This document shows positions 1-45,571 of a stretch of 45,571 nucleotides of DNA, piece by piece. The notes below the pieces were generated by a model. That model saw nothing but the letters and a program-made list of their open reading frames with translations, did not search any database and was not told where the DNA came from. Source of the DNA: a virus. Both the position numbers and the translations under genes were made by a program. How positions within the stretch are numbered: position 1 is the stretch's first letter; each line of letters starts with the position of its first letter. Location: IMG/VR virus record IMGVR_UViG_3300045988_182896, positions 1 to 45,571 of that record; one strand, given 5' to 3'.

Positions 1-89
1 ATTTTTTTTGCAACTTTGATGAATTCTTCTATTTTATTTGCATTATTTGCAGCCTGCACTGTTCCGTCGAAAAATGGAATTGTTTTTGG
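1..89. repeat. Terminal direct repeat, copy 1 (identical to 45483..45571)
   Basis: Read by eye: attttttttgcaactttgatgaattc...aatggaattgtttttgg is present at both window ends, 89/89 identical. It lies inside a coding region. Confidence 0.95.
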
Positions 90-782
90 CTCTACTACGC
101 TTTCTATAGATTTTAGAAGGTCCCAGTGATAATCGTAAACATGTAACGAAGTTGGGCAATGAATATAATATCCAACATCTACGCCTATCTCATTGGCTAC
201 AATTTGTTGTAGTGCTGTGAAAACAAATAAATCATATTGCAGCCCCCAAATCAAATCATTGCTGCGCATGTAAGTTGTCAAGTTCAATTTATCATTACGA
301 ATCATGAAATGCAAATTCAATGTACATGGTACATCTTTTGTTTCATCCTCTATACCAAAGTGTGTATCATAAATTCTAATCACAGCTTGCCTTGTATCTT
401 TATCGGATTTCAATTTATCGCAAAGTTGTTGAATATGCGGTGCTATATATTGACCATAAGCTGAATTTATCGTTACACCATCATCACTATATTTATCCAT
501 TGTTTTGTTGAAAAATGAAAAATCACATACATTTGCTTTATCACTAAATAACTTATATGACTCAACTAATGCATAAATCAGACTAAATTTTCGTTTTTCA
601 CTATAAAACAAATTTCGTTTTGGGTCTGTAAGAATAATTGTTGGGTTAATTAGTTCCAACGTTTTGCCAATTCTACTTTCTACTTCATTGGCATTTGTCA
701 ATATTGCATCTCTAATTTCCATAAATATTTTTGCCCAACTATTACCTTTAAAAATGTTACCATAACATTTTAAATTTTCCAT
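1..782 (-). CDS. ThyA-superfamily dCMP hydroxymethylase-like enzyme (T4 gp42-like), N-terminal 260 codons. The ORF runs off the window start and continues at 45571..45284 (326 aa in total on the circle).
   Basis: Hand translation from ATG 782..780 (SD GAGAGGA upstream) is open down to position 3, and I checked every in-frame triplet for stops. Motifs RQAVIRIYD, DVPCTLNLHF, MRSNDLIWGLQYD and TSLHVY match recalled T4 gp42 motifs RRGIMIY, FMCTNTVQY, MRSNDVVFGFRNDY and GSLHVY. Confidence 0.75.
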   Translation of the reverse strand, partial: MENLKCYGNIFKGNSWAKIFMEIRDAILTNANEVESRIGKTLELINPTIILTDPKRNLFYSEKRKFSLIYALVESYKLFSDKANVCDFSFFNKTMDKYSDDGVTINSAYGQYIAPHIQQLCDKLKSDKDTRQAVIRIYDTHFGIEDETKDVPCTLNLHFMIRNDKLNLTTYMRSNDLIWGLQYDLFVFTALQQIVANEIGVDVGYYIHCPTSLHVYDYHWDLLKSIESVVEPKTIPFFDGTVQAANNANKIEEFIKVAKK

Positions 783-866
783 TATAACTATCCTCTCATT
801 TAATCTGGGATTGTCAGATTTATTTTCGCATAAAAGACTTATAATTATATTACTTTGTAATAAGGC

Positions 867-2003
867 CTACTGTATTAACTCCAGGACATTATTAACAAAA
901 TATTTTGCGTCCATAAACTTTAAATGCTTACGCATAAGTTGTATTGCATCTTTACGCTCTTTTGGGTGCTTTAGCATATATTCACCAATGGCTCTTACTT
1001 CATCTTTGTTATGAACAACTATAATATCCTTGAGCTCATCAGGAACATATTTTCCAATTACATCATCACCAAATTCCTCAATAAATAACGGCAAGCAACC
1101 GTAAAATACAGCCTCTATTAGTCTTGCCGTCACAAAGCCCTCTTTACAATATTCACGTTTTGCTAAAAGTGGTGTAACTGCACACTTTGAATAAGCCGTG
1201 TACATGTCTGCAGTTTGTAGTCTTCTCTTAAATTTTAAGTTTGGCCAAACTTCATTGCTATTTCTACCACTTTCCAGCCAATTACCATGAACAATAGATT
1301 TATCGGGTAAATATTTATTTATACACCAATCCCTCTCATATCTGTTTCCTACATATATAACAGCATCTCTTGGTCTTTTTATTTTAAAATCATTTATATG
1401 CAAGAAATCAAATGGTATCTCAATCCTTCTTGAAACAACACTTTCTTCCTTGCTCCATTTGTTACCAAGCTCAATTACATATTTAATATTGTTTCTGTAA
1501 ATATCCCCAATTGTCATTTTGTAATCTAAATCAAAAATAACGACTGGAATATTATGCTCATTTGCATATTGAATTAGGCTCCTACATATCACTAAATCTG
1601 GTTGCCAATCATCACCATAATCAACATCAATATTTCTACCTGGTATAGGCCATCTCCATTCTATAAGCATCATGTCTAAATCTGGCATATTTTCTAGTGT
1701 TACATAACCTTGTGTATCTCCTGCCGGTTTAAAAGCCATTATTTTTGCACTCTTGTCCATGCAATTATATGCAAACCTTCTATCCCTTTCACACCATGCA
1801 GAAAACATATTCTTACTGTCAAATTTAGCACAATTTATATCCCTATCTACTGTCAAACAGTGTACTTTATGGCCAGCATCAATAAATCCTTTTATAATAG
1901 TCCACGAATAAAAGGCATTGCCATCTGGTGTGCTTATCTGTCTACCATTGGCGTTATATTTTCTATCACCAAGGAAACCCCAATAAAAATAACCGACTTT
2001 CAT
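867..2003 (-). CDS. T4 beta-glucosyltransferase-like DNA glycosyltransferase (GT-B fold), 378 aa
   Basis: ORF track. AVIYVGNRYERDWCINKYL and VTARLIEAVFYGCLPLFIEEFG resemble recalled T4 BGT segments DVIYGGSFRSGQRESKMVEFL and ITLRVWETMASDAVMLIDEEFD. The N-terminus MKVGYFYWG resembles MKIAIINMG. Its start overlaps the upstream kinase stop (ATGA). Confidence 0.6.
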   Translation of the reverse strand: MKVGYFYWGFLGDRKYNANGRQISTPDGNAFYSWTIIKGFIDAGHKVHCLTVDRDINCAKFDSKNMFSAWCERDRRFAYNCMDKSAKIMAFKPAGDTQGYVTLENMPDLDMMLIEWRWPIPGRNIDVDYGDDWQPDLVICRSLIQYANEHNIPVVIFDLDYKMTIGDIYRNNIKYVIELGNKWSKEESVVSRRIEIPFDFLHINDFKIKRPRDAVIYVGNRYERDWCINKYLPDKSIVHGNWLESGRNSNEVWPNLKFKRRLQTADMYTAYSKCAVTPLLAKREYCKEGFVTARLIEAVFYGCLPLFIEEFGDDVIGKYVPDELKDIIVVHNKDEVRAIGEYMLKHPKERKDAIQLMRKHLKFMDAKYFVNNVLELIQ

Positions 2004-2551
2004 ATGCTAACCTTACCTTCCGTAAAAACTATTTTTTTATTTTGACCAATCCCTACACCAATCCACTCATGTACCCTAGACAAATCAACACTTGATATGT
2101 CTATTGTCATGCTATCTAATTTGCTTCTTTTAACTTCACTTTCAAATTTATTTTGTATATCATCCAAATATTCTTTCATTTTTTCATCTTCACAGTATTC
2201 TCTTTTTAATAACATCAACTTTGTGCCGTTTGGTATTCTTTCTTCTATTTCATCATTTACAGCCCTTAAACATTCTATATATGTTTTACCACAAACAAGC
2301 GGTGACATACTCCTATATACCATTTCCGTTATATGAAATCTATCAACAACAATATTTGTCTGTTCCGATAATGCTTTCAGAACCTCTATTTGTGAAATCA
2401 TTGATGTTCTATATTGATTTAATCTTTCGAAATGTTCTTCACCAATCAAATTACACCCTGTATCTTTGAAGTAACACCAACCATTATTTTTCAAATGCCT
2501 AGCAAACGTTGTTTTACCTACACGATTTGAGCCTTCTAAAATTAAAAGCAT
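2000..2551 (-). CDS. Thymidylate-kinase-like P-loop dNMP kinase, 183 aa
   Basis: Walker A LEGSNRVGKTT and a DRFHITEMVY motif (Tmk-like DRY..S..AY). It lies between the NTP pyrophosphatase and the GT. Confidence 0.6.
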   Translation of the reverse strand: MLLILEGSNRVGKTTFARHLKNNGWCYFKDTGCNLIGEEHFERLNQYRTSMISQIEVLKALSEQTNIVVDRFHITEMVYRSMSPLVCGKTYIECLRAVNDEIEERIPNGTKLMLLKREYCEDEKMKEYLDDIQNKFESEVKRSKLDSMTIDISSVDLSRVHEWIGVGIGQNKKIVFTEGKVSI

Positions 2552-2570
2552 ATTTTCCTCCTAAAAGTTG

Positions 2571-2601
2571 GCGCCTAAAATCCAAACAGGAAAATAGGCG
2601 C
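2571..2601 (-). other. Intergenic hairpin (7-bp GC-rich stem GCGCCTA/TAGGCGC, 17-nt loop) between the dCTPase-like and kinase genes
   Basis: Inverted repeat read directly. On the minus strand it is followed by CAACTTTTAGGAGG and the kinase ATG. Confidence 0.35.
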
Positions 2602-2613
2602 ACTTTCTATTCA

Positions 2614-2994
2614 TTATTCATTTTTTAATATTTGCCTTTTTATGTTGCGAATATTTTTTTCTTTAAACGCTTCAACAAATTCCTCGTAAGAAAATCCTGA
2701 ATACAATACTGCATTTATCAAGAAGTGCATTGCATCCACAAGTTCATCCAATTTATCAGCATTATTATTTTTTTCTTTCCTTTTACCACCAATTAACACT
2801 TTCCAGCGATTATCAGTTTGTATAGCCTCACAAAGTTCTACTATACAAGCTGTAGTCTGCAAATAAAATTTATCTGGTAAATCTTCAGGAACATCAATAC
2901 CACATGCTAACTTTTGAAATGAAATCTGCTTTTCGAACATTTCTCTAAGTACATCATTTTCTACGCTTTTTCTGCTTTCTTCTTGGCTCATCAT
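2614..2994 (-). CDS. All-alpha NTP pyrophosphohydrolase, T4 gp56 (dCTPase/dUTPase)-like
   Basis: C-terminal KLDELVDAMHFLINAVLYSGFSYEEFVEAFKEKNIRNIKRQ resembles recalled gp56 EIKFELVDIFHFVLNMFVGLGMNAEEIFKLYYLKNKENFARQ. I moved the start to ATG 2994 (SD-like GAGGA upstream). The 3036 start in the track reads through the antisense frame of the SSB acidic tail. Confidence 0.6.
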   Translation of the reverse strand: MMSQEESRKSVENDVLREMFEKQISFQKLACGIDVPEDLPDKFYLQTTACIVELCEAIQTDNRWKVLIGGKRKEKNNNADKLDELVDAMHFLINAVLYSGFSYEEFVEAFKEKNIRNIKRQILKNE

Positions 2995-3751
2995 CTTCAT
3001 CCTCATCATCTTCATCTTCGTCTTCGTCTTCATCATCTAAATCTTCATCAAAGTCGTCTTCATCTTCGTCATCGTCATCATCATAATCGAATGGAATATC
3101 ATCATCATCCTCATCTTCATCATCTTCAACAACGCGTCTCTTACTCTTTTTACTTGAGGTTTTCTTTTTATTCTTCTTTCTTACCTCTCTCTCTTCATCC
3201 TCATCATCTAAATCTTCAGCATCAAGGTCATCATAAGGAAAAGCTTCAAGCAACATTTTCAAAACTTTTTTCTTTGAATAAGCGTTCTCATCAAGCCTAA
3301 ATCTTTTTTTATCCATTGGAACAACAGAATAATTCGTTTCTGTACCAGAACCATTTCGCTGGATAACAAAATCTCTATCGCAAATCGTTCCATACGTTTC
3401 ATACATAGACACTAATGCTGGAATTGGCGAACATTTGTTTGCCTTGAACACGAACAATTCTTTTCTTTTTGTTTCATAGTTCCAAATAGTCCATACAAAA
3501 TTGCTTGTCGTTCTTGCCTCAGGATTCTTACAATTTGGGCATTTTTCACCATAATATGTGAGACATGGGTGGTTAAATTCTCCCCATTTATCGTGGAAGT
3601 CAACTTGAAAACCTTCCTCCATATCTTGCAAGAATCTAACACGCACTTTATTGCCCGCCTTCACATAAAAAACAGCACTTTTCTTATTGCCAGAATTTGC
3701 TATTTTTGTTTTCATGATTTCAACGAGCGATTTTGAACTTTCTTTTGCCAT
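2954..3751 (-). CDS. Single-stranded DNA-binding protein with a Zn-ribbon (gp32-like architecture) and a very long acidic tail, 265 aa
   Basis: HPCLTYYGEKCPNC is a His/Cys3 candidate Zn site. The C-terminal ~90 aa are poly-D/E and contain DDDDIPF. SD GGAGGT precedes ATG 3751. The gene sits next to the primase. Confidence 0.5.
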   Translation of the reverse strand: MAKESSKSLVEIMKTKIANSGNKKSAVFYVKAGNKVRVRFLQDMEEGFQVDFHDKWGEFNHPCLTYYGEKCPNCKNPEARTTSNFVWTIWNYETKRKELFVFKANKCSPIPALVSMYETYGTICDRDFVIQRNGSGTETNYSVVPMDKKRFRLDENAYSKKKVLKMLLEAFPYDDLDAEDLDDEDEEREVRKKNKKKTSSKKSKRRVVEDDEDEDDDDIPFDYDDDDDEDEDDFDEDLDDEDEDEDEDDEDEDDEPRRKQKKRRK

Positions 3752-31986: not shown

Positions 31987-32073
31987 TGGTGCAGATGACG
32001 GGACTTGAACCCGTACGATATTTCTATCAATGGATTTTGAGTCCATTGCGTCTGCCTATTCCGCCACATCTGC
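31987..32073 (-). tRNA. trnL-CAA: tRNA-Leu (anticodon CAA), type II with a long variable arm, CCA encoded
   Basis: Hand-folded: acceptor GCAGATG/CATCTGC, anticodon arm ATGGA-CTCAAAA-TCCAT, variable stem GATA/TATC, T arm ACGGG-TTCAAGT-CCCGT. Confidence 0.85.
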
Positions 32074-32121
32074 ATATAACCTGCACTCTTTATTTAATGT
32101 GTCGAGTGCACAAACACATGA

Positions 32122-32197
32122 TCGAGATAACAGGACTTGAACCTGTGACTTCGTACTCCCAAAGTACACGCACTCTACCAAACTGAGTTATATCTCG
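32122..32197 (-). tRNA. tRNA-Pro (UGG)-like paralogue with 2 extra nt between the D arm and anticodon stem; no encoded CCA
   Basis: Hand-folded: CGAGATA TA ACTC AGTTTGGTA GAGT GCG TGTAC TTTGGGA GTACG AAGTC ACAGG TTCAAGT CCTGT TATCTCG A. It may be a pseudo-tRNA. Confidence 0.55.
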
Positions 32198-32352
32198 ATA
32201 ATAATATTGAGCCAAAGGACTTTCACCTTTGGGAACAATGGTTGGATTTACATCTGCAGCTGTCTACCAACAGTCTTTCCAGGCGACTAACCATTAACTT
32301 CAGTTACATTGTTTTTTCATATCAACATATTTTAAGAAATTTTCTTTTCGGT

Positions 32353-32426
32353 CGAAGCTTTGAAAACTCGAATTTCAACCTTTCCCCTGACAAAACGGGG
32401 ACGTGCTATCCGCTACACTAAACTTC
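32353..32426 (-). tRNA. Aberrant tRNA-like gene with a 9-nt anticodon loop GUUUUGUCA (or a 7-nt loop closed by G.A, giving anticodon UUG, Gln)
   Basis: Hand-folded: acceptor GAAGTTT/AAGCTTC (one G.U), D arm GTGT-AGCGGATA-GCAC, anticodon stem TCCCC/GGGGA, T arm TGAAA-TTCGAGT-TTTCA. Only 1 nt separates the acceptor and D stems. Confidence 0.45.
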
Positions 32427-32706
32427 TAATTTCTGCTATTATCAATTAAATTATTGTACAGAAGATTTAATTGATTTTGTACGTAATAGCTATGTCAATA
32501 TGGCTTTATACTCACTACTCAACTATAACTATCATATAAGCTGTTCATCTAACTCCATTTAACTACTGCTGCTGCGTCCGAATACTAGTACCCGTAAATG
32601 GGTGATACAACAAAATCACTCGACCTAGATATTAGGCTTCGTAGCACTTATACAATATTTTAATTTTTGACCTTGTCAGTTATAAGTATAATTTGTTTTT
32701 AATAAT

Positions 32707-33165
32707 TTAACCTTTTGATACGTCTACTTTGTAATGAGATTCAATATAATCTAACTTATTTTTAAGTTCTCTAATCTCATCAAGCTTGTTCTCATAGAGT
32801 GTGAATACGTCAGGTTTGTCGTCATCTGAACTTTCTGAGTCTGGCTCTTTGTCATTAGCATGCTTAAACAACTCTCTAATGATATCCTCCAATCGACCGG
32901 CCTCAGATTCTGCAGTTTTAAGCTTTGTTTGAATTACGTCATATGTATCATTATCAAACTTACGGATTTTGTTCGTCATTTTAGAGAGTCTGATAGCATA
33001 ATCAAGCGCATCTCTTAATATACGCAGCTCGGTGTAGTCCTTGCCTTTGACATCCTGCCCTACAATAGACCGTTTTGCATACATACAAAGAATATCATCA
33101 CATTCTTCCAGAAGCCTGTAGGCTTCAGTGTACGTAGGATTAAAGTTTTTAAGATCGATATTCAT
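32707..33165 (-). CDS. Hypothetical protein, 152 aa
   Basis: ORF track. SD AAAGGAGAAG precedes the ATG. Confidence 0.55.
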   Translation of the reverse strand: MNIDLKNFNPTYTEAYRLLEECDDILCMYAKRSIVGQDVKGKDYTELRILRDALDYAIRLSKMTNKIRKFDNDTYDVIQTKLKTAESEAGRLEDIIRELFKHANDKEPDSESSDDDKPDVFTLYENKLDEIRELKNKLDYIESHYKVDVSKG

Positions 33166-33216
33166 GTTACTTCTCCTTTAATTTCAATGATTTATACTAT
33201 TTAAAATAGCCTATAA

Positions 33217-33293
33217 TGGTCGAGATGACAGGATTTGAACCTGCGACCTCTGCAACCCAAATGCAGCGCCCTGCTCAACTAGGCTACATCTCG
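33217..33293 (-). tRNA. trnP-UGG: tRNA-Pro (anticodon UGG), canonical cloverleaf, CCA encoded
   Basis: Hand-folded: CGAGATG TA GCCT AGTTGAGCA GGGC G CTGCA TTTGGGT TGCAG AGGTC GCAGG TTCAAAT CCTGT CATCTCG A CCA. Confidence 0.85.
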
Positions 33294-33356: not shown

Positions 33357-33788
33357 TTAAACTTTTTTCGATAAGACTATCTCATTAACTTGCTGTATAA
33401 TTTTATCTGTTTCAACCTTTATTTTGATTAAATTTTCCCAATACTCGCTCACGTGATTATATCTCCATACGCCCAGCTTGTCTTTACTATCATAAGAAGC
33501 AAATGACATACCCAAAAATTCATCATAGGCGTCTATGAGTTGAGTAAAACATTCAACAGAAGGAATGTTGATACAATAACTATTTTCAAATAATTCACAC
33601 CAATCATAAGCATCTCTTATATTATATTTAGTTAAAGGTTTTAAATCATAATCAAAGAATACAACTTCTGGATTATCTAAAAGTGCTTTATATCTGTTTT
33701 CATAATACTCACATTCCTCTTTTGTTTCAAATTCAGTACCATCATTAGCAATGTAAATTGTTTTCTTTGTCATGACTTTTTTACCCAT
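33357..33788 (-). CDS. Hypothetical protein, 143 aa
   Basis: ORF track. It overlaps the ThyX-like gene end by 8 nt. Confidence 0.55.
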   Translation of the reverse strand: MGKKVMTKKTIYIANDGTEFETKEECEYYENRYKALLDNPEVVFFDYDLKPLTKYNIRDAYDWCELFENSYCINIPSVECFTQLIDAYDEFLGMSFASYDSKDKLGVWRYNHVSEYWENLIKIKVETDKIIQQVNEIVLSKKV

Positions 33789-34476
33789 TTATGGTATCTC
33801 CGGTAATCAATTCCGAATATGGCAAATCCTTAATCCAATCAATAAAACCAATAGACCACTCGTCAAGCTTATGATTTCTGCGAGACTTGTAAATATTTGC
33901 CAGTACCTCGTAGCTCAGCATAACTGTCCGACGCTGATTGTAAGAGCTAGGCAACAGCTGAATCATCTGCCACCAAAGTTCTTTCGATTTTTTATCTGCT
34001 CCGACAACATTCTGTTTTTTTATAGCTAAATAATAATCTCGCCAATAATTCAGTTCATCTACCATATCTTCAAGAGTATTTAACGCCCTGCCTTCCAAAT
34101 GCTCATGACTGAAATCGCTCAACTCAAACTCCTTTGCTGCAATCTTATGCATAGTTGAACAAGAGTTAGCAACAGTACCTACCTTATATGTGTCAAATTC
34201 TTTCCACCAATATAAAGGTGCTGTAATATCAGCATATACAGTAATCATTCGCATAAATTTACGATGATCTGTGCCTGCATTTCGAAGACAAGTCATAAGA
34301 TTGAAGTCGTTAGAGCCGATATGCATTCCAGACATATTATTTCCACAAATTCCAGGACAATTAGCATTAGCATAGCATTTAACGCTATCGCCCTTCTCCC
34401 AAGAGTTCATAGGATTTCTCATTCCTCTTATTGCTGCTTCCCAACCAACGACTTCTGTATTTTCAAATTTAATCAT
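33781..34476 (-). CDS. ThyX-fold (flavin-dependent thymidylate synthase-like) protein lacking the canonical RHR..S....S.R motif, 231 aa
   Basis: TDHRKFMRMITVYADITAPLYWWKEFDTYKVGTVANSCSTMH aligns by eye to ThyX [39 protein letters not shown]. RHR is replaced by TYK. Confidence 0.55.
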   Translation of the reverse strand: MIKFENTEVVGWEAAIRGMRNPMNSWEKGDSVKCYANANCPGICGNNMSGMHIGSNDFNLMTCLRNAGTDHRKFMRMITVYADITAPLYWWKEFDTYKVGTVANSCSTMHKIAAKEFELSDFSHEHLEGRALNTLEDMVDELNYWRDYYLAIKKQNVVGADKKSKELWWQMIQLLPSSYNQRRTVMLSYEVLANIYKSRRNHKLDEWSIGFIDWIKDLPYSELITGDTING

Positions 34477-34478
34477 TT

Positions 34479-34724
34479 TTATTCTCCTTTATAACCATTT
34501 CCACATTCTGCATAACAATCAGAAAACATTAAATATTTACAATCTTTACAATATACTTTACCCTCAACATAACACCAACTCTGCGGCGCTTTTGTTAAGA
34601 TATAATCTTCTTCTTTCGGTTCAGGTGGATATTCAACAACACAACCTTTTGGCGTTCCTATGATAAATAAATTCTCCCAATTAGATAAAGCCTCTTCAGA
34701 ATCCTTTTTGTAGAATTCACTCAA
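34479..34724 (-). CDS. Hypothetical Cys-rich protein, 81 aa (TTG start in the track)
   Basis: ORF track. Cys pattern CKDCKYLMFSDCYAEC. Confidence 0.45.
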   Translation of the reverse strand: MSEFYKKDSEEALSNWENLFIIGTPKGCVVEYPPEPKEEDYILTKAPQSWCYVEGKVYCKDCKYLMFSDCYAECGNGYKGE

Positions 34725-34742
34725 CTCTTTCGACTTTTCATA

Positions 34743-34880
34743 TCATTTTCTCCTTTTTTCTTTCAATTTATTCCCAATTACTAACATTCTTCTGATTAGC
34801 ATTACTTTTTCAAAACAGTTTGTACACACTTTTTTTCTTGTAGTCATACATCCGCAATATTTACATTTATATTTCATCAT
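34743..34880 (-). CDS. Small Zn-ribbon ORF, 45 aa (MMKYKCKYCGCMTTRKKVCTNCFEKVMLIRRMLVIGNKLKEKRRK)
   Basis: Hand-translated. CxxC...CxxC pattern. It fills the gap between the flanking ORFs. Confidence 0.4.
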   Translation of the reverse strand: MMKYKCKYCGCMTTRKKVCTNCFEKVMLIRRMLVIGNKLKEKRRK

Positions 34881-35214
34881 CTTTTTTACTATTTCTTTCC
34901 ATCCTTAAATTCCAACATTCTTTGCAATTTAATATACAACCATCTTTATCTACTGGACAAGGTGCTCCTTCTTTCACAAAAAATGTATTAACACAATACT
35001 TTTCTACGATATATTCTCCGTTAGGTATTGTTCTTTTTATATATTCTGAATACGTTTCAGCTTTACATTTTTTAAATGGATTTTTTAATTCACCTATTTT
35101 TTCTACAATTTTTTGTTCAAATTCTATGATTTCTTTTTCTTTGTAGAAACCAATCACTAACAATATAATTGCTAATAATTCTAAAACAGTTTGCACAACA
35201 TGCCCTTCACTCAT
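34867..35214 (-). CDS. Membrane-anchored Cys-containing protein, 115 aa
   Basis: N-terminal TM segment (VVQTVLELLAIILLVIGF). ORF track. Confidence 0.5.
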   Translation of the reverse strand: MSEGHVVQTVLELLAIILLVIGFYKEKEIIEFEQKIVEKIGELKNPFKKCKAETYSEYIKRTIPNGEYIVEKYCVNTFFVKEGAPCPVDKDGCILNCKECWNLRMERNSKKDDEI

Positions 35215-35697: not shown

Positions 35698-36435
35698 TCA
35701 CTTTTTTTCAAAAATTTTTCCACTTTCAACAAAATGTGTATTTTTTCCTACTTTCACCAAATATCCCCCATTATAACATATACCATAATACACTTTTCCG
35801 CTCCTATTACTTAGCTCTTTCACATCATCTAATCGTGGCATAAACATTTTACCATTTATTTTTGTCACCGTATACCTTCTTCGCTTATATTTTTCACCAC
35901 ATGAGCAAGTAAACTCCGAATACCCAGATGATGTTTGTATGCCTTTTATATTGTCTGCCAAATTCATTTTATGACATTTTGGGCAACTTTCTATTTGCCA
36001 TTCTATTTCATATTTAAGTGCATCACTAATATCACTTATAAACTCTGGCATATCTCTCTTTGTATGCGTTCCTTCAATAACAACAATATTTTTTGATGGC
36101 ATGAATTTTTGTCTTTCTGTGTCCATTATAGCTATCTCATTTGGCGTTACAACCACTGCCCACTTTACTCCTTCTTTTCCTTCCCTTCTCACGCAATATG
36201 TTTTAGGAATATACTTTCCAATAAAACCCCTATATTCTCCCTTCCTATTCTTAAACGCCATCGTGAATTTATGCCCACATTTTGTACATTTATAAAGTAA
36301 CTCAAAATCTAAATTATTATCATCTTCTATTTTTTCTGCTTTTGTGTTTATATTTATTTTACCACACTCTGGACATATAGAATAGTAACAAAGTAAACTA
36401 TGCATTAAGCATTCCCATAAATTTTTTCTATGCAT
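35698..36435 (-). CDS. Multi-Zn-ribbon protein, 245 aa
   Basis: At least three CxxC...CxxC pairs (CPECG..CTKCG, CPKCH..CSCG). Confidence 0.5.
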   Translation of the reverse strand: MHRKNLWECLMHSLLCYYSICPECGKININTKAEKIEDDNNLDFELLYKCTKCGHKFTMAFKNRKGEYRGFIGKYIPKTYCVRREGKEGVKWAVVVTPNEIAIMDTERQKFMPSKNIVVIEGTHTKRDMPEFISDISDALKYEIEWQIESCPKCHKMNLADNIKGIQTSSGYSEFTCSCGEKYKRRRYTVTKINGKMFMPRLDDVKELSNRSGKVYYGICYNGGYLVKVGKNTHFVESGKIFEKK

Positions 36436-36505
36436 TTTTACTCTTCTTTCTTTTTAATTTGTTATCTTCCTCAAACTTTCTACATATCAATCAGCATGTT
36501 TAAAT

Positions 36506-36534
36506 ATTCTACCGATATTTGCAGTAATTGTACA
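36506..36534 (-). promoter_or_regulatory. Candidate promoter I: -35 TGTACA within the palindrome ATTGTACAAT, 17-nt spacer, TAGAAT
   Basis: Minus strand reads GGGCATTGTACAATTACTGCAAATATCGGTAGAATATTT. It is weaker than the other family members and has no A-tract UP region. Confidence 0.35.
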
Positions 36535-36568
36535 ATGCCCAATATATTTGTAGTTATCACAACTTTTA

Positions 36569-36997
36569 TTATCCATCCAAACACCTCATATAGTTGCAAT
36601 CTGCACAAATTCCAAATTCACAATATAAATTATTATCTAAACCGTAAAAGTTACTCTGTGTGTCACTGGTTAAACCATTTTGATATATATATTCTGCTTT
36701 AACTTCTTGCAATTCATTTGCTATGTTTGTTAATTGTTTTAAATATTTTTTCAACCTATATCTGGCCGTATAAAACTCTCTATTATTTAGCGATTTATGT
36801 GCTATAATCTTTTCACAAATAGAACACATAAATTGAGCATCATATCTATTATAGCCAATGTTGTTATGTTCTATTGAATAACCTTTAGACTTTTCCTCTG
36901 ATGTCATCCCATCATATAATTTGAGCATACACCTTTTTGCAAATTCTTTATCCCTTAAAATAAATTGCCAAATGTTTTCGCGACTATATGTTTTCAT
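36569..36997 (-). CDS. Hypothetical protein, 142 aa
   Basis: ORF track. Confidence 0.5.
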   Translation of the reverse strand: MKTYSRENIWQFILRDKEFAKRCMLKLYDGMTSEEKSKGYSIEHNNIGYNRYDAQFMCSICEKIIAHKSLNNREFYTARYRLKKYLKQLTNIANELQEVKAEYIYQNGLTSDTQSNFYGLDNNLYCEFGICADCNYMRCLDG

Positions 36998-37283
36998 ATT
37001 TACTTTTTAATTCTCCCATTAGCTCAGATATTCTTTTTGCATTCTTCCTTATTTCAGCCAAATTCTTATCTTCATTTTCTTTACCTGTATTTCTTTTTGA
37101 TAATAGTCTTTGTTGCTCTTTTTGCAACTTCCTCATTTCTGTATTTGTGTAAAAAAATGTGTATTCTTTACCACAATGCTCACATTTTATATATACTCTT
37201 CTAACATCGCCTTTTACTTTTCTATCATACGGCTTTTTTTGCATCATTTTGCCTTTGCAATTATCACATACAACTTGTGTCAT
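36984..37283 (-). CDS. Zn-ribbon protein with a coiled-coil tail, 99 aa
   Basis: CDNC...CEHC. Confidence 0.5.
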   Translation of the reverse strand: MTQVVCDNCKGKMMQKKPYDRKVKGDVRRVYIKCEHCGKEYTFFYTNTEMRKLQKEQQRLLSKRNTGKENEDKNLAEIRKNAKRISELMGELKSKYENI

Positions 37284-37511
37284 TTAATATAACTCCTTGT
37301 TTAAGAATTCTTCCATCTCATCTTCTGATTTTATATTTCCTATTTTGTTTGCTAATCCCAAAATTGCTTTTGTATCACCACTTTTAAGCACATCAATCAC
37401 TCTTGCACTTTCAAATTTTGATGTATACGCCTTCTCACATTGACAGCAAGGTTCCTCTTGAACATCTTTATCAAAATATCTGCAATACTGGCATGCTTGT
37501 ACTTCACTCAT
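37284..37511 (-). CDS. Small Cys-rich protein, 75 aa
   Basis: CQYC...CCQC. Confidence 0.5.
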   Translation of the reverse strand: MSEVQACQYCRYFDKDVQEEPCCQCEKAYTSKFESARVIDVLKSGDTKAILGLANKIGNIKSEDEMEEFLNKELY

Positions 37512-37960
37512 ATTTTTTCTACCTCAATTCCTGCTTCATTTAATATATCTTTAGACAATTCGTCATTATAATCGTTTTTGTAAAATATATGTTTTATTCC
37601 GCAATTTATTATTGATTTTGCACAATTTATACATGGAAAGTGTGTACAATATAAAACTGCTCCATTTATGCTAATACCAATATTTGCCGCAGACAATATT
37701 GCATTCTCTTCCGCATGTACAGCCAAACAATATTCGTGTCCTTCTCCATGACCAAATCCAAGTTTTCTTTTCCTACAATATCCTATATCACACAAGCAAT
37801 TTTTTATCCTTGATGGTGCACCAGAATATCCAGTTGCAACTATTCTTCCATCTTTTACGATTATTGCTCCCTTTTGCTCACTAAAGCATGTACTTCTACT
37901 TGCAGTTAACTCTGCTATTTTCATAAAATACTCTTGCCAAGTTGGTCTTTTTTTATCCAT
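37508..37960 (-). CDS. dCMP deaminase (ComEB/T4 Cd type), 150 aa
   Basis: HAEENAI and the PCINCAK zinc-binding motif, with the overall cytidine/deoxycytidylate deaminase pattern. Confidence 0.85.
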   Translation of the reverse strand: MDKKRPTWQEYFMKIAELTASRSTCFSEQKGAIIVKDGRIVATGYSGAPSRIKNCLCDIGYCRKRKLGFGHGEGHEYCLAVHAEENAILSAANIGISINGAVLYCTHFPCINCAKSIINCGIKHIFYKNDYNDELSKDILNEAGIEVEKI

Positions 37961-38051: not shown

Positions 38052-38504
38052 TTACAGGTCGAAATCGTCATCATCGTCGTCGTCATCAAAATCGTCATCA
38101 TCATCAAAGTCATCTTTTTTAGATTTCTTTGCAGGCTTCCTTGTGACCTTTTTCTTTTTCTTAGAAGGTGCCTCATCCTCTTCGTCAAAGTCATCTTCAT
38201 CGTCGTCGTCATCTTCTACTTGCTTTTTCTTTGCTTTTTTTGCGGGATTCTTTTCAGCCTTCTTAACTTTCTTCTGCTTTTCTTCTATAAGGTCTTCCTC
38301 TTCACCATCTTCATCAACTTCAACATCACCTTTCAAAACTGCTTCAATTTTTCTTGCAGTGATATAAGACGGAATTGCTTCAACAATTTGTTCTGCAGTT
38401 GATGTTGCGAAAAGCGGAAAACGTCTACCAATGTCTGCACGTGCTTCCTTGTCGCCTTCTTTAAGTGCAGCGAAGGCTTCTGCTGCTGTCCAATTTTTTG
38501 CCAT
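38052..38504 (-). CDS. Charge-block protein: small N-terminal domain + alternating poly-K and poly-D/E tracts, ending DDDDDDDDFDL, 150 aa
   Basis: ORF track. SD AAAGGAGAAA precedes the ATG. Confidence 0.55.
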   Translation of the reverse strand: MAKNWTAAEAFAALKEGDKEARADIGRRFPLFATSTAEQIVEAIPSYITARKIEAVLKGDVEVDEDGEEEDLIEEKQKKVKKAEKNPAKKAKKKQVEDDDDDEDDFDEEDEAPSKKKKKVTRKPAKKSKKDDFDDDDDFDDDDDDDDFDL

Positions 38505-45284: not shown

Positions 45285-45571
45285 TACTTGTACCACCTTT
45301 TGAAATAACATTTATAATTTGCTATGTCTTCACTTTCCAAATCTACATAATCTAATAAACCAAACTTGTACAATATTTCATTTATTATTAACTTCATTTG
45401 TATATTACTGTCATTATAGTTATCTAAAAATCTTAGTATTTTAACTTTATATAATATATTATTATTAACTGATTCGGCTTGCATTTTTTTTGCAACTTTG
45501 ATGAATTCTTCTATTTTATTTGCATTATTTGCAGCCTGCACTGTTCCGTCGAAAAATGGAATTGTTTTTGG
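45284..45571 (-). CDS. C-terminal part of the dCMP hydroxymethylase-like gene (continuation of 782..1 across the junction)
   Basis: 45483..45571 duplicates 1..89. The frame is continuous (K-K-M-Q-A-E-S across the junction). The total is 981 nt on the 45,482-bp circle. Confidence 0.75.
   Translation of the reverse strand, partial: PKTIPFFDGTVQAANNANKIEEFIKVAKKMQAESVNNNILYKVKILRFLDNYNDSNIQMKLIINEILYKFGLLDYVDLESEDIANYKCYFKRWYK
45483..45571. repeat. Terminal direct repeat, copy 2 (identical to 1..89)
   Basis: Direct comparison of the two window ends. Confidence 0.95.

Follow-up and report, generated by a model that had tools for sequence, protein, structure and literature searches.

A ThyX-fold protein family with an apparently remodelled active site, found in phages of anaerobes and beside dihydrofolate reductase in Lachnospiraceae

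The window analysed here is the whole 45,571-nucleotide (nt) sequence of the IMG/VR virus record IMGVR_UViG_3300045988_182896, and the subject is a protein of 231 residues encoded on its minus strand at 33781..34476. This protein belongs to a large family predicted to share the fold of the thymidylate synthase ThyX, in which residues diagnostic of ThyX are systematically replaced by others that are themselves conserved, and whose chromosomal members in several Lachnospiraceae lineages are encoded upstream of dihydrofolate reductase (DHFR). The family is probably, at odds only a little better than even (about 0.55), a divergent ThyX-superfamily thymidylate synthase that would use methylene-tetrahydrofolate (CH2-THF) and deoxyuridine monophosphate (dUMP) and provide the phage with its deoxythymidine monophosphate (dTMP).

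Fold and active site of the ThyX-like protein

Kinship with ThyX is clearest at the level of structure. An AlphaFold2 model of the monomer, built on a 59-sequence alignment, is ThyX-like and has a mean predicted local distance difference test score (pLDDT) of 93.1 and a predicted template-modelling score of 0.86. The best 50 Foldseek matches in the PDB are all ThyX (Thermotoga maritima TM0449, Helicobacter pylori, Thermus thermophilus), with E-values of ~2e-6 to 1e-5, probability 1.00, template-modelling (TM) scores of 0.48-0.61 and identities of 10-16%. In the BFVD library of viral structures, the family's own members, labelled 'uncharacterized', rank first and annotated ThyX proteins next. 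The secondary-structure elements of the model follow the ThyX order one to one, when set against the topology of TM0449. The ThyX fold, which an earlier sequence-only reading had proposed from a collinear core, is confirmed by this model.

At the sequence level, the protein is a full-length member of PHROG 6721, a family of unknown function (residues 1-226 of 231 against profile positions 7-216 of 218, E 3.3e-79). Its similarity to ThyX is below threshold, and homology is instead bridged by a relative: gp68 of phage phiCTP1 (36% identical), the best-scoring family member, matches Pfam Thy1 (PF02511) with 23.8 bits (E 4.5e-5), slightly below the gathering score of 24.8, and a member from a Fusobacterium phage matches it with E 0.13. 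The profile search proposed by the sequence-only reading gave no Thy1 match for the 231-residue protein at E<=10. Sequence searches of the PDB with the protein, two family profiles and phiCTP1 gp68 returned nothing related to ThyX, and chance matches to an alpha-haemoglobin stabilising protein and a putative hydrolase were rejected. There was likewise no Pfam match of the protein to the unrelated ThyA family (Thymidylat_synt, PF00303), and no ThyA among its structural matches.

Residue equivalences between the family and ThyX were taken from hhalign (local mode, low mact) and MAFFT alignments, with column statistics drawn from 97 diverse family members and 54 diverse ThyX sequences. The segments of the gene that bear on the comparison are these:

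33781..34476, minus strand: ThyX-like open reading frame (ORF), member of PHROG 6721 (PHROG profile, E 3.3e-79; AlphaFold2; Foldseek)
34384..34428, minus strand: R17-G-M-R-N-P-x-N-S-W-x-x-x-D-S31 loop after helix 1, family-specific and highly conserved (alignment)
34327..34383, minus strand: variable insertion loop, residues 32-50, often Cys-rich (alignment; pLDDT 71-81 in this block)
34147..34272, minus strand: residues 69-110, TDHRKFMRMITVYADITAPLYWWKEFDTYKVGTVANSCSTMH, core collinear with ThyX 51-91 (H53 ... RHR ... S88-R90-Y91; hhalign, MAFFT)
34264..34266, minus strand: H71, aligned with ThyX H53 and kept (hhalign, column statistics)
34183..34191, minus strand: T96-Y97-K98 at the position of ThyX RHR, R78-H79-R80 (hhalign, MAFFT, column statistics)
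34147..34158, minus strand: S107-T108-M109-H110 at ThyX S88-G89-R90-Y91, with Ser kept, Arg replaced by Met and Tyr by His
33949..33963, minus strand: I172-Q-L-L-P176 at ThyX R147..P151, with Arg replaced by Ile and Pro kept (hhalign, column statistics)
33856..33897, minus strand: N194..R199..H202..E206-W207 at ThyX N169..R174..H178..E182 (MAFFT, hhalign, column statistics)

Conservation of the aligned positions within the family is as follows:

ThyX H53, kept as H71: 82%
ThyX S88, kept as S107: 94%
ThyX P151, kept as P176: 96%
ThyX N163, kept at position 188: 81% (Ser in the 231-residue protein itself)
ThyX N169, kept as N194: 63%
ThyX R174, kept as R199: 89%
ThyX H178, kept as H202: 90%
ThyX E182, kept as E206: 93%
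ThyX R78, replaced by T96: 87%
ThyX H79, replaced by Y97: 92%
ThyX R80, replaced by K98: 79%
ThyX R90, replaced by M109: 91%
ThyX Y91, replaced by H110: 89%
ThyX Q75, replaced by E93: 85%
ThyX E58, replaced by R76: 92%
ThyX E144, replaced by W169: 63%
ThyX R147, replaced by I172: 91%
ThyX R165, replaced by E190: 77%
ThyX Q180, replaced by L204: 90%

In ThyX itself, the substituted positions of the RHR motif and the S loop are 94-98% conserved (R78 94%, H79 96%, R80 96%). The placement of TYK under RHR, made by eye in the sequence-only reading, recurs in three alignments (hhalign against Thermotogae ThyX, hhalign of the 97 against the 54 sequences, and MAFFT with distant members), and the profile alignments keep TYK in this register rather than shifting the motif. 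That reading had also described the downstream S....S.R pattern as altered, which agrees with two hhalign runs that pair S88 with S107, R90 with M109 and Y91 with H110; the ungapped MAFFT alignment is offset by one position in this loop. The 231-residue protein retains only the Ser (S107) of the ThyX motif RHR(X)7-8S, and only R174 (as R199) of the three dUMP arginines R90, R147 and R174. R199 and H202 are invariant in an eight-sequence alignment of distant members with ThyX.

Judged from the alignment columns, the substitutions are family-wide and not peculiar to the 231-residue protein, and the active site looks remodelled rather than decayed, because the replacement residues are themselves conserved. 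The exchange of E58 for Arg together with that of R165 for Glu looks like a charge swap. Residues newly conserved in the family include basic (R20, K73, R76, K92, K98, R146, R183, K203) and aromatic ones (Y89, W90, W91, Y97, W169). Among the ThyX positions that were lost or changed, R78, H79, R165 and E58 presumably contact flavin adenine dinucleotide (FAD) in ThyX, and the lost arginines are, in the TM0449 complexes, clamps of the dUMP phosphate and the FAD pyrophosphate. The catalytic residues of ThyX include R174, which activates dUMP by polarising the uracil, and S88 and Y91, which assist methylene transfer, with R90 adjoining Y91 (PMC8316439). As aligned, the family keeps the uracil-polarising Arg and the Ser, and has His at the position of the Tyr acid.

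Gene context in bacteria and phages

The most informative result comes from bacterial chromosomes. In 9 of the 80 bacterial loci compared, the gene lies outside a prophage with a DHFR gene downstream, in several Lachnospiraceae lineages that include Lachnoanaerobaculum gingivalis, L. sanguinis, Lachnospiraceae oral taxon 107, and Hungatella and Lachnoclostridium metagenome-assembled genomes (MAGs). The two genes are separated by a gap or overlap of 1-4 nt in seven loci and by ~25 nt in locus L229, and a metallo-beta-lactamase-fold gene stands between them in locus L232; the pair is kept across at least three different flanking contexts. The chromosomal copies (~207 residues) are 50-55% identical to the 231-residue protein and have all its signature motifs, TYK and STMH included. 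In Lachnoanaerobaculum, the gene order on a 3.08-Mb contig (precomputed Pfam calls) is RuvA, RuvB, Peptidase_U32, NUDIX, ThyX-like, DHFR_1 and PfkB, with a 14-nt overlap between the NUDIX and ThyX-like genes and a 1-nt gap before DHFR_1, and NCBIfam confirms the DHFR homology of the downstream gene. The best 120 homologues of the Lachnoanaerobaculum copy are Lachnoanaerobaculum proteins of 95-100% identity, all called hypothetical. This NUDIX/ThyX-like/DHFR operon has the classic thyA-folA layout: in Firmicutes, the thymidylate synthase gene thyA characteristically stands just ahead of folA/dfr, and T4 td-frd is organized likewise. That pairing reflects the ThyA reaction, which yields dihydrofolate (DHF, H2folate) that must be recycled by DHFR (PMC5954106).

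Among the 86 related viral loci, the gene moves between otherwise unrelated phage genomes, yet consistently within replication and nucleotide modules. None of these loci shares the flanking genes of the window, save for one copy of the 143-residue ORF downstream, and a megablast search with 20 kb of the window found no match among GenBank phages. A MazG pyrophosphohydrolase gene lies ~1 kb downstream in 30/86 loci, with NrdD in 20/86 and NrdG in 19/86. In the T7-like Desulfovibrio phage ProddE, a DNA polymerase gene is followed further on by the ThyX-like gene, an exonuclease, a hypothetical gene, MazG, polynucleotide kinase, NrdD and NrdG. In phiCTP1 the gene lies between Pol III genes and RecA, in phiCD211 between Pol III alpha and a group of Erf, helicase and primase genes, and in Fnu1 it adjoins a DNA cytosine methyltransferase gene. 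No DHFR gene stands beside the ThyX-like gene in phages.

The 100-kb Enterocloster phages carry a deoxynucleoside monophosphate (dNMP) kinase gene two genes upstream and in the same direction, and a DUF5131 gene after the ThyX-like gene. The full order is dNMP kinase, a 304-residue protein, a small hypothetical gene in phage PMBT24, ThyX-like and, after ~300 nt, DUF5131 (phage Gp37/Gp68, radical-SAM-like; L090:2912-3664, and L165, which is PMBT24). The 304-residue protein has no Pfam family and matches weakly a PHROG of unknown function. This set may be a nucleotide-modification operon.

Canonical ThyX or dUMP-type ThyA is encoded in 0/5 complete carrier phage genomes (the window's own genome, ProddE, phiCTP1, XP41-N3 and PMBT24), and neither canonical enzyme is found within 6-10 kb on either side of the gene in 166 loci. 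With the ThyX hidden Markov model (HMM), the best match in phiCTP1 is the family member itself, and the PMBT24 member is also among the weak top matches. The 100-kb PMBT24 genome has dUTPase, NrdDG and Pol III genes and no thymidylate synthase.

Two other gene families recur near the ThyX-like gene. DUF5662 is present in 28/86 viral loci (L066:9463-10014 and 27 others) and lies directly upstream in 16/86, which makes it the commonest immediate upstream neighbour in phages; in Lachnoanaerobaculum, too, a DUF5662 gene is found ~5.7 kb upstream of the chromosomal operon (L247:1-293). Tad3-domain proteins are encoded a few hundred bases to a few kb away in L012 (16637-17698) and ~15 other loci; a 353-residue form has, by eye, an N-terminal HAD-like nucleotidase motif (DFDGCL), and the form at L004:12481-13794 carries a WDGH domain.

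The family is carried by phages and prophages of anaerobes, mostly Clostridia, in replication and nucleotide-metabolism modules. A family search matched more than 8,000 clusters at 90% identity, which is where its scoring stopped. When all representatives were scanned, 4,668 clusters at 50% identity matched with E<=1e-3, of which 1,375 fall below 1e-30; this number of clusters argues for selection on a function. None of the 4,668 clusters carries a precomputed Pfam domain, and nearly all members are labelled hypothetical in databases. The GenBank phages that carry the gene are sipho-, myo- and T7-like podoviruses that infect Clostridium, Clostridioides, Enterocloster, Fusobacterium and Desulfovibrio, all of them anaerobes. 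In a collection with one genome per species, at least 577 stretches match, mostly from Oscillospiraceae, Lachnospiraceae, Ruminococcus and other Clostridia. Recognition at the fold level is so far limited to a few automatic annotations, in that a few MAG records name the Enterocloster-phage member 'Thymidylate synthase complementing protein'. Searches of full-text literature found no description of an RHR-less ThyX-fold family, a ThyX-like/DHFR operon or a third type of thymidylate synthase.

Rare fusions point the same way as the nucleotide-module context. They join the ThyX-like domain to DUF3310 (P0243, E 3e-18), to a MazG fragment (P0242) and to DUF1599, the 'nucleotide modification associated domain 1' (P0188, E 6e-9). 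Where long family members extend at the C-terminus, the extensions mostly show no relation to one another and have no Pfam match. In P0143, P0199 and P0239, a homing-endonuclease-like HNH_3 domain (with NUMOD4 and HTH_38) is inserted in frame into a variable surface loop after the DFSxEHL motif, equivalent to residues ~127-130 of the 231-residue protein. Inspection found no obvious splice motifs and inteins were rejected; these could be domain insertions or unrecognised introns. P0145 carries a ~100-residue insertion in the variable N-terminal loop (residues ~35-125) that resembles, by eye only, nucleoside 2-deoxyribosyltransferase/Rcl (LCGSSKF...) and has no Pfam match.

An exact 89-bp direct repeat at 1-89 and 45483-45571 indicates that the window is a phage genome of ~45.5 kb (G+C 32.6%) assembled as a circle. 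Three of its other genes bear on pyrimidine nucleotides:

1..782 and 45287-45571, minus strand: ThyA-family gene of cytosine type, spanning the circular junction (Pfam Thymidylat_synt, E 1.3e-18)
2614..3036, minus strand: all-alpha dUTPase_2-type nucleoside triphosphate (NTP) pyrophosphatase (Pfam dUTPase_2, E 3e-8)
37508..37960, minus strand: deoxycytidine monophosphate (dCMP) deaminase (Pfam dCMP_cyt_deam_1, E 8.5e-23)

The first 260 of the 326 codons of the ThyA-family gene lie at 1..782 and the last 95 (residues 232-326) at 45287-45571, the two parts overlapping across the junction. The best PDB match of its product is the CMP 5-hydroxymethylase MilA (E 6e-19), and it has Asp at the position held by Asn in dUMP-specific ThyA, which bears out the earlier view of this enzyme as cytosine-directed; the dCMP deaminase named alongside it is likewise present. 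A glycosyltransferase-like protein (867-2003) and a dNMP-kinase-like protein (2000-2551) are encoded beside the ThyA-family and pyrophosphatase genes. Together, the module at 1-3036 and 45287-45571 looks like T4-like cytosine modification in a low-GC, siphophage-like genome, and suggests 5-hydroxymethylcytosine, possibly glycosylated, in the phage DNA. The T4-like set lacks a recognisable thymidylate synthase here, a gap that the ThyX-like gene is the obvious candidate to fill. A tie of the ThyX-like gene to such a 5-hydroxymethylcytosine-type module was considered and rejected: ThyA-like, glycosyltransferase, kinase and dUTPase_2 genes are nearby in 0/86 loci. A dCMP deaminase gene is nearby in just 2/86.

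Around the ThyX-like gene, the minus-strand operon is tightly packed. The ORF is intact and starts with ATG (ORF listing and direct reading), and the stop codon of the upstream ORF lies 2 nt before this start. Its putative translation signal, read from the sequence, is:

34484..34488, minus strand: AGGAG ribosome-binding site, 7 nt 5' of the ATG

The 3' end overlaps by 8 nt with a 143-residue ORF (33357-33788, minus strand) that has no match in Pfam or PHROG; its sole homologue in the fetched loci, in L003, is 64% identical and lies ~700 nt downstream of the ThyX-like gene. Four tRNA genes (Leu-CAA, Pro-TGG x2, Gln-TTG; 31987-33293, minus strand) follow directly downstream of the operon, before the terminase region. 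Upstream, small Cys-rich ORFs with CxxC pairs and zinc-ribbon-like motifs (34479-35214 and 35698-37283, minus strand) have only weak PHROG matches, to a DNA-binding protein family and to families of unknown function. Elsewhere, the proteins encoded at 2954-3751 and 38052-38504 (minus strand) have low-complexity tails of extreme acidic (D/E) and basic (K) composition, the protein at 2954-3751 being at the position expected for a single-strand-binding protein.

Candidate reaction and alternatives

In the reading that we favour, the family is an active, divergent ThyX-superfamily enzyme acting on a pyrimidine deoxynucleotide and CH2-THF, and its most probable conversion would be dUMP to dTMP. The dCMP deaminase would supply dUMP, and the all-alpha NTP pyrophosphatase, which could yield dUMP or dCMP, may assist it. 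The cytosine direction of the ThyA-like enzyme would leave the ThyX-like protein as the phage's own thymidylate synthase. Binding of the nucleotide phosphate and of the cofactor may have been rebuilt from the newly conserved basic and aromatic residues, use of the cofactor is possibly changed relative to ThyX, and the conserved DHFR operon suggests that the reaction would be coupled to dihydrofolate recycling. The idea that the protein supplies the phage's dTMP by altered chemistry, already raised from the sequence, is favoured on computational grounds by the DHFR operon, the nucleotide-gene neighbours, the fusions and the absence of a canonical synthase from all five carrier genomes.

Several points weigh against this assignment. 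The 231-residue protein has no Pfam or NCBIfam match even at E<=10, and profile-profile comparison of the family with ThyX has poor significance and a low hhalign probability. With five of the Arg/His residues that hold the dUMP phosphate and FAD in ThyX lost, the mechanism of ThyX cannot operate here without change. The phage might simply rely on the thymidylate synthase of its host, and since de novo folate synthesis requires DHFR as well, its adjacency is no proof of a DHF product. In small temperate phages such as XP41-N3, the gene lies by Erf, Gam and SSB with no other nucleotide-metabolism gene save for a MazG-type pyrophosphohydrolase, and the annotated genes closest to it on some contigs encode anti-Thoeris Tad3/Tad8 and N6 methylase.

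More tentatively, the family could be a third mechanistic kind of thymidylate synthase, with the ThyX fold, a lost or rebuilt flavin site and the stoichiometry of ThyA. W90, W91, Y97 and W169 would then fill the flavin cavity, the R174 equivalent would activate dUMP non-covalently, and CH2-THF would give both the methylene and the hydride, with release of dihydrofolate. The coupling to DHFR, the loss of the presumed FAD contacts and the newly acquired bulky aromatic residues leave room for this proposal, and ThyA stoichiometry on a ThyX scaffold would explain the chromosomal operon with DHFR. Such an enzyme may be the sole synthase of Lachnoanaerobaculum, related gut and oral Clostridia and thousands of their phages. 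To our knowledge, textbooks describe just two de novo thymidylate routes, ThyA and ThyX, and both enzymes are drug targets.

If the family is a thymidylate synthase of either description, an annotation gap in the nucleotide metabolism of many gut and oral Clostridia and their phages would be closed, and predictions of antifolate and trimethoprim sensitivity would change. It would also represent a natural experiment in rebuilding the flavin-relay mechanism of ThyX. The T4-like precursor set of the window would be complete, with its cytosine hydroxymethylase-type enzyme, NTP pyrophosphatase, kinase, glycosyltransferase-like protein, dCMP deaminase and synthase.

An unlikely alternative, though the strongest competitor of a thymidylate synthase, is a different pyrimidine-nucleotide modifier that makes a precursor of modified DNA, for instance a methylase or hydroxymethylase whose substrate is dUMP, dCMP or a nucleotide in another phosphorylation state. 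The ThyX nucleotide-phosphate clamps R78, R90 and R147 are replaced, the fusions include DUF1599 and DUF3310, and the window already has a cytosine-modification module. The Enterocloster arrangement, with its dNMP kinase, 304-residue protein and radical-SAM-like DUF5131 protein, fits this alternative as well; phage dNMP kinases often accompany non-canonical dNMPs, as does T4 gp1. However, a hypermodified pyrimidine is not expected in cellular genomes, where the gene is a conserved chromosomal one in a DHFR operon, and hydroxymethylases release tetrahydrofolate rather than DHF and would not be tied to DHFR in any particular way. Most phage loci moreover lack a kinase, glycosyltransferase or other modification gene nearby.

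It is improbable that the family modifies uracil or cytosine within DNA or RNA, as an analogue, unrelated in fold, of the folate-dependent TrmFO/RlmFO. The loss of arginines that bind a mononucleotide phosphate and the many newly conserved Lys and Arg residues would suit a polynucleotide substrate, as would the recombination and replication neighbours (Erf, Gam and SSB in XP41-N3, Erf in phiCD211, the exonuclease in ProddE and the DNA cytosine methyltransferase in Fnu1). However, what the gene is fused to or adjoins (the NTP pyrophosphohydrolase-type domains MazG, DUF3310 and DUF1599, along with NrdDG, dNMP kinase and dCMP deaminase) suggests a role in the pool of free nucleotides. An operon with DHFR is easier to reconcile with bulk one-carbon flux than with rare modification of a polymer, and no nucleic-acid-binding domain was detected with Pfam or NCBIfam.

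Least probable is the non-catalytic paralogue that the sequence-only reading had also entertained, a ThyX-derived nucleotide- or folate-binding regulator, sponge or anti-defence factor: it would accord with loss of the diagnostic RHR motif, patchy and mobile distribution over unrelated phage genomes, Tad3- and Tad8-encoding genes near some copies and the label hypothetical in every database, but conservation is 82-94% for the equivalents of R174, S88 and H53 and for the His that takes the place of Y91, and the substituted positions are conserved as well. Together these form the pattern of a changed rather than dead active site, and the gene is a core chromosomal one with DHFR in Lachnospiraceae. 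An anti-defence role suggested by Tad3/Tad8 proximity was set aside in view of the fusions, the DHFR operon on the chromosome and the neighbouring genes of nucleotide metabolism; positive evidence for the non-catalytic reading is lacking, with PADLOC and anti-defence libraries outside the searches made.

Comparison with known systems

ThyX (PF02511, EC 2.1.1.148; TM0449, PDB 1O26) shares with the family its fold, as modelled, the order of secondary-structure elements, a size of ~210-230 residues and occurrence in phage replication and nucleotide modules, and the equivalents of H53, S88, N163, N169, R174, H178, E182 and P151 are kept. The family differs in that RHR is TYK and in the replacements R90M, Y91H, R147I, R165E, E58R, E144W and Q75E, all conserved, as well as in the conserved loop RGMRNPxNSWxxSDS after helix 1, which has no ThyX counterpart, and the variable Cys-rich insertion. 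ThyX is a homotetramer with active sites at subunit interfaces, bound FAD and turnover dependent on NAD(P)H (reduced nicotinamide adenine dinucleotide or its phosphate). Genomes with thyX reportedly often lack folA, whereas the chromosomal copies of the present family lie directly upstream of DHFR, in the layout typical of thyA.

It is ThyA with DHFR (thyA-folA/thyE-dfrA; T4 td-frd) that this bacterial operon resembles, with the family gene immediately upstream of DHFR, and in phages the family travels, as ThyA does, with dCMP deaminase, dUTPase/MazG, Nrd genes and dNMP kinase. ThyA is nevertheless unrelated to the family in sequence and fold, and the ThyA-family gene of the window is separate and of cytosine type. 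No conserved Cys nucleophile is evident in the family: C106 is present in 72% of members and is Thr in the chromosomal copies.

A precedent for a ThyX-superfamily enzyme with a changed substrate is PolB, the UMP/dUMP C5-methylase of polyoxin biosynthesis (PDB 4P5A), which presumably keeps the RHR motif. PolB is a close ThyX relative recognisable by HMM (E 3.8e-34 to TM0449), and the present family is far more divergent. PHROG 6721, of which the 231-residue protein is a full-length member, is without functional annotation and adds no mechanism. Set against these systems, the family is best described from its alignments and model as a variant of the ThyX superfamily, with an already known fold, an apparently new active-site pattern and an operon with DHFR.

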